A stretch of DNA of 17,155 bases from a virus (IMGVR_UViG_3300005531_000248:64001-81155), one strand, 5' to 3'; positions 3,651-17,155 are shown, counted from the first letter of the stretch. Notes: generated by a model not told the origin, from the letters alone. A program made the numbers and translations.

Positions 3651-3873
3651 GGCTGGCTTGGATTGCCAGCCCTAACCCCCGAAAAGACCGAAGGAATCCC
3701 GGATTCGCGTGAGGCCTCACGCGAATGGCTCAAGTGGACCGCTCCGTAATTGGGTTCAGGTTTTTGGGTGTCAATGAACATTGACAACTCGCCTCAGAGC
3801 GCGCACGCGGGAAGGCTTCTGACCGTTATCGACCGCTGAGAAAAGCGTCGAAAACAAAAACCAATAACAGTCT
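3651..3873 (+). repeat. Composite multi-hairpin intergenic element, copy A (full length)
   Basis: GGCTGGC-TTGGATT-GCCAGCC hairpin 3651-3671; 22-bp palindrome TTCGCGTGAGGCCTCACGCGAA 3704-3725; TGTCAATG-AA-CATTGACA 3769-3786; box1 GAGCGCG 3797-3803; box2 GACCGCTGAGAAAAGCGTC 3831-3849; A-rich tract to ATG 3874. Homologous to 4779-4891 and 6409-6663. Confidence 0.9.
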
Positions 3874-4146
3874 ATGTGGATTAGTCGACTCCTTCATGGA
3901 CTAGGATCCCGTCTCTACAATTTCACTCTCAATGCCTTCGACAGATCCCTTGCATCCTTGGTTCTCGGTGCACCGCCGGACTACACCATCTCGGGCGAAA
4001 TAGGAAAGCATCAAGCAACCAATCCCATCGCAGAAGAAGCCGGAGACGTGCTGGACAAGATCCAGAAGAACCACGTCGAGGACGCCGCGGCCGTGGATGC
4101 TGCCTTAACCGAAACCCGAAAACACACCCCAGGAGGGGGAACGTAA
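3874..4146 (+). CDS. Small phage hypothetical protein (90 aa)
   Basis: Pattern AFDRSLA...G.PDYTISGEIG...LDKIQKNHVE resembles a recurrent small phage family (PDETIS...LD.I..NHC). No SD; the ATG follows the repeat module. Confidence 0.75.
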   Translation: MWISRLLHGLGSRLYNFTLNAFDRSLASLVLGAPPDYTISGEIGKHQATNPIAEEAGDVLDKIQKNHVEDAAAVDAALTETRKHTPGGGT

Positions 4147-4338
4147 ATGCTCGATAAAGTGGCCGACCAGACCGCGAAGGACTTGAACGCCGGTATCGCG
4201 CTTAACATCACCGAACTGTTCGCCGGACTAAACCAAGTGCTCGACCGCCTGGACGGCGCCACGGTCGAATGCAAGGCCACGGTGGAATGCACGTTTACGG
4301 TCCACCTGCGTCCCTGGACCCCAAAGCCGACCGCATGA
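4147..4338 (+). CDS. Hypothetical protein (63 aa)
   Basis: TAA-ATG abutment with the upstream gene and ATGA overlap with the downstream gene. Confidence 0.7.
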   Translation: MLDKVADQTAKDLNAGIALNITELFAGLNQVLDRLDGATVECKATVECTFTVHLRPWTPKPTA

Positions 4339-4775
4339 AACGACTCCTCGCGCTTCTCCTGTTCTCAATCCCCGCGGCCGCCCAGACCTTCTACGGCGCC
4401 GGAATTACGCTCCTGCCCCAGTCTTCGCCCAAGCCCTCGGCATGGTTTGTGGCCGCGACCAACATTTCGAAGACCCAGGATGTCTGGAGTTTCAGCGAGA
4501 CCGACGCCGTACTGGTCAATAAGCGGATCGTGACCAGCGCCCGGACAGGCATTGCAACCGGGCTGCGGAGCTTTGGACCGTGGAAACTATTTGCGCTGGC
4601 AAACGCCGGCGTCGCTACCAATGGGGGAGCAACATCGGGAGCTTATGCGGGCGGCGGTGTTTTAACCGGACCTTTTCCTCACAGTTCTCGCTTAAAGACA
4701 ATTCTTGGAACACGCATTATACGAAGCGGAGTGGGTGGAACAACAGTAACGTACAACATTGGATTTGGATGGTGA
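4335..4775 (+). CDS. Secreted, probable small outer-membrane beta-barrel protein (146 aa)
   Basis: Start reassigned to ATG 4335 (ATGA overlap). Signal peptide MKRLLALLLFSIPAAA-Q, alternating hydrophobic strands, C-terminus YNIGFGW ending in an aromatic residue. Confidence 0.7.
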   Translation: MKRLLALLLFSIPAAAQTFYGAGITLLPQSSPKPSAWFVAATNISKTQDVWSFSETDAVLVNKRIVTSARTGIATGLRSFGPWKLFALANAGVATNGGATSGAYAGGGVLTGPFPHSSRLKTILGTRIIRSGVGGTTVTYNIGFGW

Positions 4776-4778
4776 GAC

Positions 4779-4891
4779 GCTGGCCTGGAGTGCCAGCCCT
4801 AAACCCGGACGACCGGGAGAGTCCCGGATTCGCGTGAGGCCTCACGCGAAGGCCTGAGTGGACCGTTGTAGTCTAAGTTCACCCGTACAGG
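4779..4891 (+). repeat. Composite element, copy B (5' half only)
   Basis: GCTGGC-CTGGAGT-GCCAGC 4779-4797; CCGGGA-GAG-TCCCGG 4813-4827; same 22-bp palindrome 4829-4850; GGCCTGAGTGGACC 4851-4864. Homology ends near CAGG 4888-4891. Confidence 0.9.
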
Positions 4892-5018
4892 AAGCCTCGG
4901 AAGTTCTGGAAGAAAAAACGAAGAAAACGTAACTAGCCCGAGGACATTCTGCTCTAGATCCGAGCACTACATCCTTGCGCGCTTTCACCTGTTCACCCTT
5001 GCTTGTTTTGAGCCTATG

Positions 5019-5046
5019 CAACCTTCAGCCTTTGACCTTGAGCCTT
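5019..5046. repeat. Four tandem heptamers NNNCCTT
   Basis: CAACCTT CAGCCTT TGACCTT GAGCCTT, plus a related GAGCCTA at 5010-5016. Confidence 0.6.
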
Positions 5047-5062
5047 AACGCCATGTTGTTTT

Positions 5063-15180: not shown

Positions 15181-15273
15181 AACCCACACCCGCTTCGAAA
15201 GGGATGAAGGGGATGCAGGGGAAGCAACCGCAGGTGGCGTCCCCTGCCTCAGCAACACACACCCCATAGGTTT

Positions 15274-15669
15274 ATGAAACCACCCCGCAATACGCGTTAT
15301 CTGGCCTGGATTCGTTCCTTACCCTGTTTGATATGCCAAACCCTTCGGCATATCGAAGCGGCGCACGTAGGGCCTCACGGCATGGCACAGAAGGCATCGG
15401 ATTTCAGAACCGTGCCGCTATGCCTCAAACATCATCGAACCGGAAACGACTCGCTCCACAAACTGGGGCGCCGGCGCTTCGAGGAACGCTTCGGAGTCGA
15501 CCTTCTAAAGCAAGCCGAAAGACTCGCTTCCAAAATCCAGGTCCGGGTAGAAAACGGCCACTATGTCGGGTATCTGGAAAATGAAGCAATACCGTTGAGT
15601 CCGGTGGAACGAGGCATTCCAGCCATGATTAAGCTGGCTGTGGGTATTGCAAAGGAGAAGTTGAGATGA
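15274..15669 (+). CDS. DUF968/HNH-like Zn-binding putative nuclease
   Basis: YLAWIRSLPCLIC...AAHV.....G...KASDF..VPLC..HH. Confidence 0.85.
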   Translation: MKPPRNTRYLAWIRSLPCLICQTLRHIEAAHVGPHGMAQKASDFRTVPLCLKHHRTGNDSLHKLGRRRFEERFGVDLLKQAERLASKIQVRVENGHYVGYLENEAIPLSPVERGIPAMIKLAVGIAKEKLR

Positions 15670-15761
15670 TAATCAGACTCAGAGTTTGTTGCGTCTTGTG
15701 CTGCACTGGAGTTGCAGCACGGAGCAATAAGACGGCTTCGGTTGAGGCGGTCCGGTCATGA
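15666..15761 (+). CDS. Mini-ORF MIIRLRVCCVLCCTGVAARSNKTASVEAVRS (31 aa)
   Basis: ATGA overlaps at both ends; contains the CTGGAGT-loop hairpin. Confidence 0.4.
   Translation: MIIRLRVCCVLCCTGVAARSNKTASVEAVRS
15698..15720 (+). repeat. Stand-alone CTGGAGT-loop hairpin (fourth copy, different stem)
   Basis: GTGCTGCA-CTGGAGT-TGCAGCAC. Confidence 0.7.
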
Positions 15762-15958
15762 GCCAAGAAAAGAATTGGGAAGTGTATGACAACGGTCACG
15801 TGATACCCAGAAATGATCTCAGGGTTCACGAGGCGGACGCAAGTTGTTGGTGCGCTCCAACTCAACATCCTGAGGATGCGGACGTATGGGTTCATCACTC
15901 TGCCGATAGAAGAGAATTTAATGAGCCGGGCGGAGCATTCGGAGCGAAAGAACACTAA
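15758..15958 (+). CDS. Small phage protein with an H.IP.ND...H.....CWC.P metal-binding pattern (66 aa)
   Basis: GAGG SD; recurrent phage motif HVIPRNDLRVHEADASCWCAP. Confidence 0.8.
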   Translation: MSQEKNWEVYDNGHVIPRNDLRVHEADASCWCAPTQHPEDADVWVHHSADRREFNEPGGAFGAKEH

Positions 15959-15976
15959 CCAAAAGGAGCGGTTCTA

Positions 15977-16087
15977 ATGAGCAAAGACCTTGATAAGTTG
16001 GCAAACACGATTAAAATTCAGAGCTTCGTCATTGTCGTACTACTCGTGGGCCTTATCGTGATGGCTCTGACGGTGGTGGGTCGATGA
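15977..16087 (+). CDS. Small single-TM protein MSKDLDKLANTIKIQSFVIVVLLVGLIVMALTVVGR (36 aa; not in ORF track)
   Basis: AAGGAG SD; ATGA overlap with the next start. Confidence 0.75.
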   Translation: MSKDLDKLANTIKIQSFVIVVLLVGLIVMALTVVGR

Positions 16088-16292
16088 GCGAACAGCAGCT
16101 ATTGGAAATGATCCAGTGGATTGGTATATAGCGGCCGTTTGGTTTTGTTTGTTGCTTAACGGCAACGTTGTGATCGTCGTTATCGTATCGGAAACCTACA
16201 GGCACTTTCGCAATAAGCACCGTGCTGAAGGTTGGCGGGATGGCTGGAAGGCACGGAGCGAGTACGAAGTCGGAAGGAAGGAGTCGAAGTGA
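16084..16292 (+). pseudogene. Small membrane-protein gene apparently split by a 2-nt slip at GGTATATAG (or a mini-ORF plus a GTG-16116 ORF)
   Basis: Frame from ATG 16084 stops at TAG 16129-16131. The -1 frame continues IAAVWFCLLLNGNVVIVVIVSETYRHF...EGWRDGWKA...ESK to TGA 16290-16292, overlapping the next GTG. Confidence 0.55.
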
Positions 16293-17155
16293 GCGAACAG
16301 AAGCTATCGGAGGGCTTTACGACTAGAGAGTGGGTAGCACTTGCCGTATACGCCAAAGATCACGATGCCATCGTTGGCAAGATTGCTGCGCTGGAGTCCA
16401 GCAACGAGCGAATGCGCGATCTGGTCCGCTACAAACGGCACGAACTGTTTAACGATGACCTGATTTCGCAGGAAGAGTTTTCGTCTTTGGTGGCTGAGAC
16501 TCCGGGTTCGGTTGCGCGGCTTGAGGGCTACGACAAGGCGAAGGCTGAGTTTAACGAGCGGATTGCCGCACTGGAGGCGCAACTGAAAATCTCAGAGGGC
16601 GCTGTGCGCATTCAGGCTGCGCAAGTCAACAGTCTAATCGCCGAGCGCGACCAACTCCGCGCCAAGGCCGAGAAAGCCGAAGCACGGCTGAACGAAACGT
16701 TTACCGATGACGACGGAACCATATGGACCGTGCCGACCGCATGGGCATACGCGCAAGCCTGCAAAGCGGTGAACGCAAGGCAACTTTCCGCAGAGAAACT
16801 GGCCGAGCGAGCCGAGGAGGATTCGCGGCGGCTGCGAGAGATTCGTGAGTCATTCGCGGATCATGAGAAGGCCGTCGAAGCACTACATCAGATAGTGTTG
16901 CATATCTACCCCGACGCAACGCGTTCAGATCACCCGTATTACACAATTCGATCGCACATGGCAGCAGTCCTGCGCTCGTTAGATCGCTGCCGCGAGTGCG
17001 CTATTGACGCTGCTAGAGCGGAGGAACGGGCGTTGAAAATCTGTCGCGAGGCCATCGATAAGGCCGAGGGAACCATCCCGAGCGCGAACGCGGGAAAGGC
17101 GCAACCCGTCGAGACCAATGAGAAGAGCGTCGACAACAAAGGCCACAACTCATGA
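16289..17155 (+). CDS. Coiled-coil hypothetical protein (288 aa)
   Basis: AAGGAG SD and GTGA overlap place the start at 16289; heptad-rich sequence; C-terminus reads through module copy 7; ends in ATGA, implying a coupled gene beyond the window. Confidence 0.8.
   Translation: MSEQKLSEGFTTREWVALAVYAKDHDAIVGKIAALESSNERMRDLVRYKRHELFNDDLISQEEFSSLVAETPGSVARLEGYDKAKAEFNERIAALEAQLKISEGAVRIQAAQVNSLIAERDQLRAKAEKAEARLNETFTDDDGTIWTVPTAWAYAQACKAVNARQLSAEKLAERAEEDSRRLREIRESFADHEKAVEALHQIVLHIYPDATRSDHPYYTIRSHMAAVLRSLDRCRECAIDAARAEERALKICREAIDKAEGTIPSANAGKAQPVETNEKSVDNKGHNS
17080..17140 (+). repeat. Bipartite pre-start module, copy 7
   Basis: GAGCGCGAACG 17080; 26-nt spacer; GACCAATGAGAAGAGCGTC 17113-17131; GACAACAAA; ATG 17152. 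Confidence 0.82.

Follow-up and report, generated by a model that had tools for sequence, protein, structure and literature searches.

What does a short two-part DNA element do when it stands, seven times over, shortly before start codons in both the late and the early genes of one phage? The question is raised by a stretch of 17,155 nucleotides of viral DNA (IMGVR_UViG_3300005531_000248:64001-81155), called the window below, which corresponds to the minus strand of C73:216625-233779 in a 7.34-Mb assembly of 165 contigs. Each copy of the element, here called the module, consists of box1, a spacer, box2 and an A-rich tract. We found that the module is real and specific to phages, that it goes with gene boundaries, and that many copies are tied to start codons. 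The reading that we tentatively prefer, at slightly less than an even chance, is that of a portable, recombining gene-junction cassette whose 3′ end would supply the start context. The conclusions on the function of the module come from sequence analysis.

The Seven Copies in the Window

The module is about 65 bp long and strand-asymmetric. Its 5′ part reads tCA-GAGCGCG(A/C)ACG, followed by 20–24 variable nt that end in C(A/TG)ACC(C)GT, and its 3′ part reads GACCGCyGAGrrr-AGCGT, then yrmcA and an A-rich hexamer. The initial annotation of the window had placed box1, GA(G/C)CGCG(A/C)ACG, at seven positions, and it was recovered exactly at all of them (3797, 5973, 6600, 9329 on the minus strand, 13434, 14203 and 17080). 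Box2 lay at 3831, 6008, 6634, 9295 (minus strand), 13467 and 17113 with at most three mismatches, six matches compared with 0.02 in shuffled sequences, and the copy at 14203 carried the variant GACCGCCCAGAGGAGCGT. The distances given earlier also held, namely 27, 28, 27, 27, 26, 27 and 26 nt from the heptamer of box1 to box2, and 24, 20, 11, 49, 26, 31 and 20 nt from box2 to the ATG. All seven copies were co-oriented with a plausible downstream gene. The reported lack of a Shine-Dalgarno (SD) sequence in copies 1–4 was borne out, and copy 7 had none either; the starts of copies 5 and 6 were preceded by GGAGG and AGGAG, respectively. The copies are listed below with their scores in a sequence-only covariance model (R1), which was made from an alignment of all module copies (A1).

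3794..3861, plus strand: module copy 1, 65.0 bits; 'late' subtype GCGCACG...CGACCGCTGAGAAAAGCGT...AACAAAA; ATG of a 90-aa open reading frame (ORF) at 3874
5970..6039, plus strand: module copy 2, 55.0 bits; before a Peptidase_M15_4 endolysin-like gene with its ATG at 6047
6596..6664, plus strand: module copy 3, 61.6 bits; ATG at 6664, 12 nt past AGCGT; the 135-aa ORF opens with MKKLLLLSLLLSLC, signal-peptide-like
9265..9332, minus strand: module copy 4, 59.2 bits; ATG of RtcB 50 nt past AGCGT
13433..13497, plus strand: module copy 5, 58.0 bits; within the last codons of a 139-aa GerE/LuxR-type ORF (13096-13515)
14199..14268, plus strand: module copy 6, 59.6 bits; within the 3′ end of a 142-aa ORF (13862-14290)
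17077..17142, plus strand: module copy 7, 64.5 bits; within the 3′ end of a 307-aa coiled-coil ORF (16232-17155)

The three ORFs that contain copies 5–7 run into the next gene. The 139-aa ORF overlaps the start of its neighbor (13512) by 4 nt, the 142-aa ORF overlaps the start of the PD-(D/E)XK nuclease gene (14287) by 4 nt, and a 115-aa GerE/sigma-r4-like gene follows copy 7, its start lying in an ATGA overlap with the 307-aa ORF.

Distribution of the Module

Genome-wide, the covariance model detected 21 full copies with scores of 49–65 bits, all of them in C73:216.6-295.5 kb, a prophage of about 80 kb, and these were tied to gene boundaries. The best score beyond the 21 copies in the 7.3-Mb genome was 20 bits, so the host has no copy. 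The Atlas neighbors of one host protein were of mixed origin, Acidobacteriota being common among them. The prophage was identified by its terminase (C73:272.3-273.8 kb), portal (266.4-268.6 kb) and ejection protein; the part covered by the window carries an endolysin, RtcB, a PD-(D/E)XK nuclease and two GerE-type proteins. Among 401 genomes of the family, the strict pattern matched the window's own genome alone and none of the 400 others, and about 185,000 species genomes yielded only single chance matches of at most 25 bits. A first scan of IMG/VR with the strict pattern gave no match. With a looser pattern two complete viral genomes were found, and real copies were present in JGI metagenomes on five short contigs (L086, L088, L091, L103, and L139). 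The carriers compared were thus the prophage, the complete 41.8-kb genome G407 with 31 copies (one per 1.3 kb), the 38.6-kb genome G406 with terminal repeats and about 10 copies, and metagenome or viral contigs. In G401, a complete relative of 87.7 kb, no copy was found; it has a palindromic repeat of its own, AAAAGGTCTGTACAGACCTTTT, with both-strand 12-mer counts of 6–7 (L022-L026).

G406 and G407 are related to each other and have only a few accessory genes in common with the prophage. When the prophage was compared with the metagenome contigs, the module alone was similar (75–93% identity) and the flanking genes showed no similarity, and particular spacer subtypes of the module recurred across phages. 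Contig L140, which is syntenic with C73:274-284 kb, carries three modules; it has them at junctions that lack them in the prophage, and vice versa.

Placement at Gene Boundaries, Orientation and Doublets

The placement of the copies was compared with random positions in 3000 trials for G407, a copy being counted when its midpoint lay within 70 nt of a called gene boundary. This was the case for 25 of the 31 copies, compared with a mean of 9 and a maximum of 19 for random positions, and 2 copies lay deep inside genes compared with 19 at random. In the prophage, 16 of the 21 copies were near a boundary against 5.4 expected at random. The claim that the module is always aimed at a start codon did not survive outside the window, since 5 of the 21 genome copies and 13 of the 31 copies in G407 faced no co-oriented gene start. 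The five in the prophage (282320+, 284208-, 294592+, 294893-, and 295446+) point at the end of a convergent gene or have no supported ORF ahead of them. In G407 the next gene in the direction of the module was co-oriented in 18 cases and opposite in 13. Measured against random placement relative to genes, on which the initial annotation had let its case turn, the positions are non-random and lie at boundaries, and the orientation in G407 is close to random.

The reversed copies are arranged with some regularity. Ten consecutive copies in G407 (13813-23845, L259/L260) strictly alternate between minus and plus, and three reversed arms in this region, almost the same in sequence, make up a separate subtype (GAACGCCGTCAGACTTCTGAGCGTTATCGACC...). 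What recurs is a doublet of two copies placed back to back, box1 inward, with arms 51–223 nt apart; it was found in G407, G406, L086, L091, and L139; a close minus/plus pair was also present in L144 and in L222. Inverted doublets together with singlets confined to intergenic sites, as the module shows them, are also the pattern of miniature inverted-repeat transposable elements (MITEs) and REPINs.

In eight forward copies of G407 the ATG stood exactly 6 nt past AGCGC, behind tracts of the GAGAGGAG type, and two of these eight ORFs begin with signal peptides. The ATG was 10–12 nt past AGCGT in three other copies and 15 to more than 130 nt away elsewhere; G407 copies with a more distant start have a separate GGAG before it. 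Reversed copies extend as far as the stop codon of the gene before them. The 3′ end of the module (purine tract, AGCGY, CAAC) adjoins the next start in forward copies and the previous stop in reversed ones. A further feature was noted in the hexamer that lies 5 nt past AGCGY. In AGCGC copies of the relatives and the prophage it tends to read TATAAT, CATAAT, TATAAA or CATAAG, and such TATAAT-like hexamers were not seen after AGCGT copies in the relatives. Because they differ by one base from the (C/T)ATGA start context of G407, these hexamers may be decayed start codons rather than −10 boxes.

Many copies sit within the last 20–28 codons of the upstream ORF. The conservation of the module is nevertheless at the nucleotide level, because the boxes are separated by indels whose lengths are not divisible by three and box2 is read in different frames in different copies. 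The sense strand is T-poor (11% T). The idea that the copies are built to be read through was rejected, as the sense strand holds 23 stop codons compared with 28 ± 4.3 expected from composition; stop codons are not depleted given this composition, so read-through by upstream ORFs needs no special design. Module-encoded tails (…QSANAG…) in the same frame end ORFs of different phages (L260:10993-11640 on the minus strand in G407; 13862-14290 and 16232-17155 in the window), and the 20 nt before box1 (AEGAIQ) are common to four ORFs of the prophage.

A Possible Portable Junction Cassette

In the cassette reading, which we hold with some reserve, the module is a portable piece that is conserved in sequence but not in structure and is retained only at ORF boundaries in a small set of soil phages, a description that suits every copy. 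Subtypes are shared between phages with unrelated flanks, copies are gained and lost at orthologous junctions, and both orientations occur. The copies would spread and be homogenised through recombination between modules. A length of 65 bp would be enough for phage annealing recombinases, and the window carries a PD-(D/E)XK exonuclease gene; whole genes or groups of genes would move along with their junctions. Being T-poor, the cassette would bring few stop codons, upstream ORFs would run through it and it would be tolerated, while in forward copies the gene downstream would have come to use its 3′ end as a start context.

Several points weigh against this. No mobility enzyme, target-site duplication or clean-edged empty-site pair was found; the flanks, inspected by eye, showed no duplication, and Pfam revealed no transposase among 54 G407 proteins, the host genome not having been searched. 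The positions GCGCG.ACG and AGCG do not vary, even between phages that differ greatly. Two reversed copies have kept their place, one after a conserved 134-aa gene (c282320+ and L140 3815-3881-) and one after the same 209-aa gene, 76% identical, in G407 (18753, minus) and G406 (20281, minus). The invariant letters and the conserved reversed copies suggest recognition by some macromolecule, a host component, for which recombination through homology alone would have no need. The orientation in the prophage is strongly biased, with 17 copies co-oriented and 4 opposite, and the eight G407 copies with the A of the ATG exactly 6 nt past the hexamer would also suit a promoter of leaderless messages. 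The boundary counts depend on noisy gene maps of C73, G407, and G406, drawn with a home-made codon-score caller. It is rather unlikely that the module is a universal gene-start cassette for a host factor exploited by all these otherwise unrelated phages, either as a new promoter class that yields leaderless messages at nearly every gene junction or as a new long translation leader; the reversed copies would then be antisense or hairpin partners that couple neighboring genes. This analysis adds the doublets, the constant register of the ATG, two complete phages that carry the module, and the negative outcomes for sigma and GerE proteins.

Candidate Protein Partners and Promoters

No regulator was found that the carriers have in common. 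In the prophage there is a gene for a 193-aa two-domain sigma factor with a FliA-like region 2, which passes the cut-off of the sigma70-ECF superfamily, and its closest homologue is on L140, a module carrier. This FliA/ECF-like sigma was rejected as the reader of the module, as G406 and G407 have no homologue and no Sigma70_r2 match. No module lies in the syntenic 6 kb of L141, whose sigma is 56% identical, and a sigma is present in G401, which lacks the module. Likewise, the search of the 54 G407 proteins against Pfam revealed no sigma, RNA polymerase or integrase. GerE/LuxR-type proteins were rejected as partners as well, with matches in G407, none in G406 and two in the module-less G401. 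The sigma gene lies outside the window, divergent from an XRE-type repressor gene and 46 bp apart from it (C73:283073-284140; L004:18073-19140). The pair is conserved in contigs L140 and L141 and looks like a second genetic switch of the prophage. Module c284208 points through the repressor gene, antisense, toward the sigma gene.

At divergent junctions, places that cannot do without promoters, sigma70-like promoter matches were found and no modules. One lies in the window:

11129..11158, plus strand: sigma70-like promoter match TTGACT-18-TATACT at the divergent junction of the window, no module

In G407, the divergent junctions at 7395-7439 (L259) and at about 32.9 kb (L260:12914-12963) have back-to-back sigma70-like matches and again no modules. 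No sigma70-type match in the window coincides with a module. Because the prophage and G407 alike have back-to-back sigma70-like matches where genes diverge, the hosts probably use ordinary −35/−10 promoters. Two-part geometries were also fitted to the module itself (GAAC-N16-17-CGT, mid-box-N17-19-AGCGY, and GACC-N19-A-rich hexamer), and none stood out. An ECF-type reading, with GAAC of box1 and CGT after N16-17, fitted about 15 of the 21 copies and was discarded, CGT being the least conserved block and lying 19 nt away in several copies. The A-rich hexamer was discarded as a −10 box, as in c227180, c293495, and L103 the ATG lies on it or right next to it.

Alternative Readings of the Module

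At the DNA level, the module could be an internal promoter cassette read by the host RNA polymerase with a host alternative sigma or a small phage factor, a reading that we consider unlikely. Its mid-box C(A/TG)ACC would be the −35 element, (G/A)AGCG(T/C) a −10-like hexamer with A at −11, and box1 an upstream or activator site near −52; messages would start in the A-rich tract and be leaderless or have a very short leader. The length of a full RNA polymerase footprint, the spacing of 17–19 nt from mid-box to AGCGY and the fixed register of the ATG in G407 are consistent with this, as are the genes without an SD after copies 1–4, the separate SD where the start is further off, and the back-to-back doublets, which look like divergent promoters. 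The carriers, however, have no sigma in common, and G401 has a sigma and GerE proteins without the module, just as L141 has its related sigma without a module in 6 kb. The heads of divergent operons have sigma70-like promoters in place of modules, no host copy exists, and 13 of the 31 copies in G407 and 4–5 of the 21 in the prophage would fire antisense into the end of a gene. All G407 copies read AGCGC and lack T at −7, and several −35/−10 assignments fit about equally well, none of them compelling. The same absence of a co-occurring sigma or LuxR-type protein and of modules at operon heads, together with the 18 to 13 orientation in G407, told against the phage-specific promoter that had been offered in the initial annotation. 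It is still less probable that the module forms a stoperator-like array of sites for a phage DNA-binding protein, such as a small GerE/LuxR-type protein, that silences or paces transcription. Many asymmetric copies lie in short intergenic spaces with an orientation bias in the prophage, GerE-type genes adjoin copies in the prophage and G407, and box1 and the end of box2 resemble a direct repeat GAGCG(C/T)(G/C)AAC. Against such an array stand the modules of G406, which has no GerE match, the two GerE matches of the module-less G401, the unit of 65 bp compared with 13 bp, the near-random orientation in G407 and the lack of a repressor common to the carriers.

At the RNA level, the module could be a leader within polycistronic messages, similar to the start-associated sequences (SAS) of Cluster K. 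It would influence how the cistron after it is translated, either by serving as a ribosome-loading platform or by binding a translational regulator. Where copies form a doublet, pairing of the reversed with the forward arm would hide the start until the upstream gene is translated, or would make an RNase III site. We give this reading a modest minority share. The short fixed distance from AGCGY to the ATG in many copies points to it, as do the SD-less genes after copies 1–4 and a purine-rich SD-like tract (GAGAGGAG or GAGGAGAG) 9–11 nt before the ATG in G407; the eight G407 copies with such a tract are the part of the earlier proposal of a translational role that stood. The SD core is not the conserved part, however; the conserved letters are GAG...AGCG and box1, and many copies read GAGAAGAG or GAGAAAAG. 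The distance to the ATG ranges from 6 to more than 130 nt. About 40% of the G407 copies are reversed, and reversed solo copies cannot serve in this way, yet two are positionally conserved. Several window copies lie wholly within upstream ORFs; copies 5–7 are translated through, and the next gene is coupled via the overlapping stop and start. No 16S rRNA gene with which the module could be compared for complementarity is present in the assembly. As RNA, solo copies are unstructured, and the doublets fold into long hairpins with z-scores of −4.1 and −8.0 that pair the start region with the sequence directly past the upstream stop codon; this fits a leader, but it is automatic, because any inverted repeat folds so. 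A nut- or put-like antitermination site, in which the box2 hairpin is bound by an N-like protein or the RNA acts on the polymerase, can practically be set aside. The hairpin of the initial annotation (CGCT-GAGAAA-AGCG, or CGCU-GAGAAA-AGCG as RNA) can be drawn in 10 of the 21 copies, and like the boxB of lambdoid nut sites (boxA/boxB) it has a short GA-rich loop. In the remaining copies it is incomplete, its fourth pair being broken in 11 of 21, and no compensatory pair was found among the 21 copies, the 3′ side being invariant and the 5′ side freely variable. RNAalifold on the 21 copies gave no consensus structure, just a 4-bp pairing between invariant letters, Rfam at a permissive threshold matched a tRNA and not the module, and no N-like partner was identified. 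A nut system has one or two sites per genome, just past the early promoters and ahead of terminators. Unlike this, there are 21 copies in the prophage and 31 in G407, many of them reversed or in ORF ends, and in our scan terminator-like sites were few downstream of modules and almost absent upstream.

Other Features of the Window

Two further features of the window lie close to or between module copies.

3769..3786, no strand: 18-bp perfect palindrome TGTCAATG-AA-CATTGACA, 10 nt upstream of copy 1; again at 6572-6589 before copy 3
5063-5138, minus strand: tRNA gene, 66 bits to the tRNA model; anticodon ATT (Asn) by ARAGORN

The palindrome TGTCAATG-AA-CATTGACA is a component of a longer repeat that bears the 'late' subtype copies. 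It contains TTGACA and resembles an operator for a dimeric protein. The gap at 3636-3795, from the stop codon at 3638 to copy 1, is filled by strong hairpins (fold z −3.5), of which TCGCGTGAGGCCTCACGCGA recurs across the prophage with both-strand word counts of 8–10; the words GGGCGTATCGCC and CTGCACTGGAGT are likewise repeated there. A terminator role of the strong hairpins before copy 1 was rejected, as they have no proper U-run. The tRNA gene lies in a reversed segment between module copies, near RtcB, and the anticodon ATT (Asn) is rare.

Comparison With Known Systems

The wiring of phage genomes and their exchange of genes leave few visible traces, and dispersed junction repeats are one of them. 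The module is unusually long and dense and is common to phages of different build, which makes it a clean case for asking whether such repeats are expression signals, recombination handles or both, and which host component recognises them. It is also of use to annotators of poorly known soil phages, as a marker of true gene boundaries and start codons and as the explanation of the odd C-terminal tails that many ORFs of these phages have.

In T4-type phages, recombination between copies of the promoter-early stem-loops (PeSLs) shuffles gene modules (Arbiol et al., 2010; PMC2839356). Like the PeSLs, the module is a short conserved cassette repeated at the junctions of variable regions, where it flanks unrelated small genes (PMC2839356). 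A PeSL, however, is a sigma70 promoter plus a terminator hairpin, whereas the module has no convincing −35/−10 and no conserved hairpin; it is also present in the structural and lysis regions, can point either way, and is carried by phages that differ in architecture. The SAS and ESAS of Cluster K mycobacteriophages are likewise phage-specific asymmetric repeats, with 11–19 or more copies and none in the host (Pope et al., 2011; PMC3203893). They lie a few bases before starts, often of different gene families, and combine an SD-like core with letters unable to pair with rRNA, with a second part upstream after a variable spacer. In contrast to the module, SAS is 13 bp long, precedes the start by 3–7 bp and nearly always points the same way, and ESAS is an inverted repeat. 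The module is one 65-bp unit at a variable distance from the start, often overlaps the upstream ORF and is frequently reversed, and it has no sequence similarity to SAS or ESAS. The function of SAS and ESAS is still untested fifteen years after their description (PMC12699233).

The stoperators of Cluster A resemble the module in that dozens of asymmetric, orientation-biased sites lie in short intergenic regions, both early and late (PMC9283540; PMC6550527). They are 13-bp sites of the immunity repressor and co-evolve with it, whereas the module is five times longer and has no co-occurring DNA-binding protein. The Correia elements of Neisseria and the REPIN doublets are chromosomal; their terminal repeats are short, and a transposase is known or suspected for them. 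As small non-coding intergenic repeats, they are found singly or as inverted doublets, which form long hairpins in transcripts, and they can carry outward-facing expression signals. The module shares these traits but is phage-borne, with no enzyme known and no target duplication seen. Without the defining sequences or parts of any of them, the module has the logic of PeSLs, SAS/ESAS, stoperators and Correia/REPIN elements.

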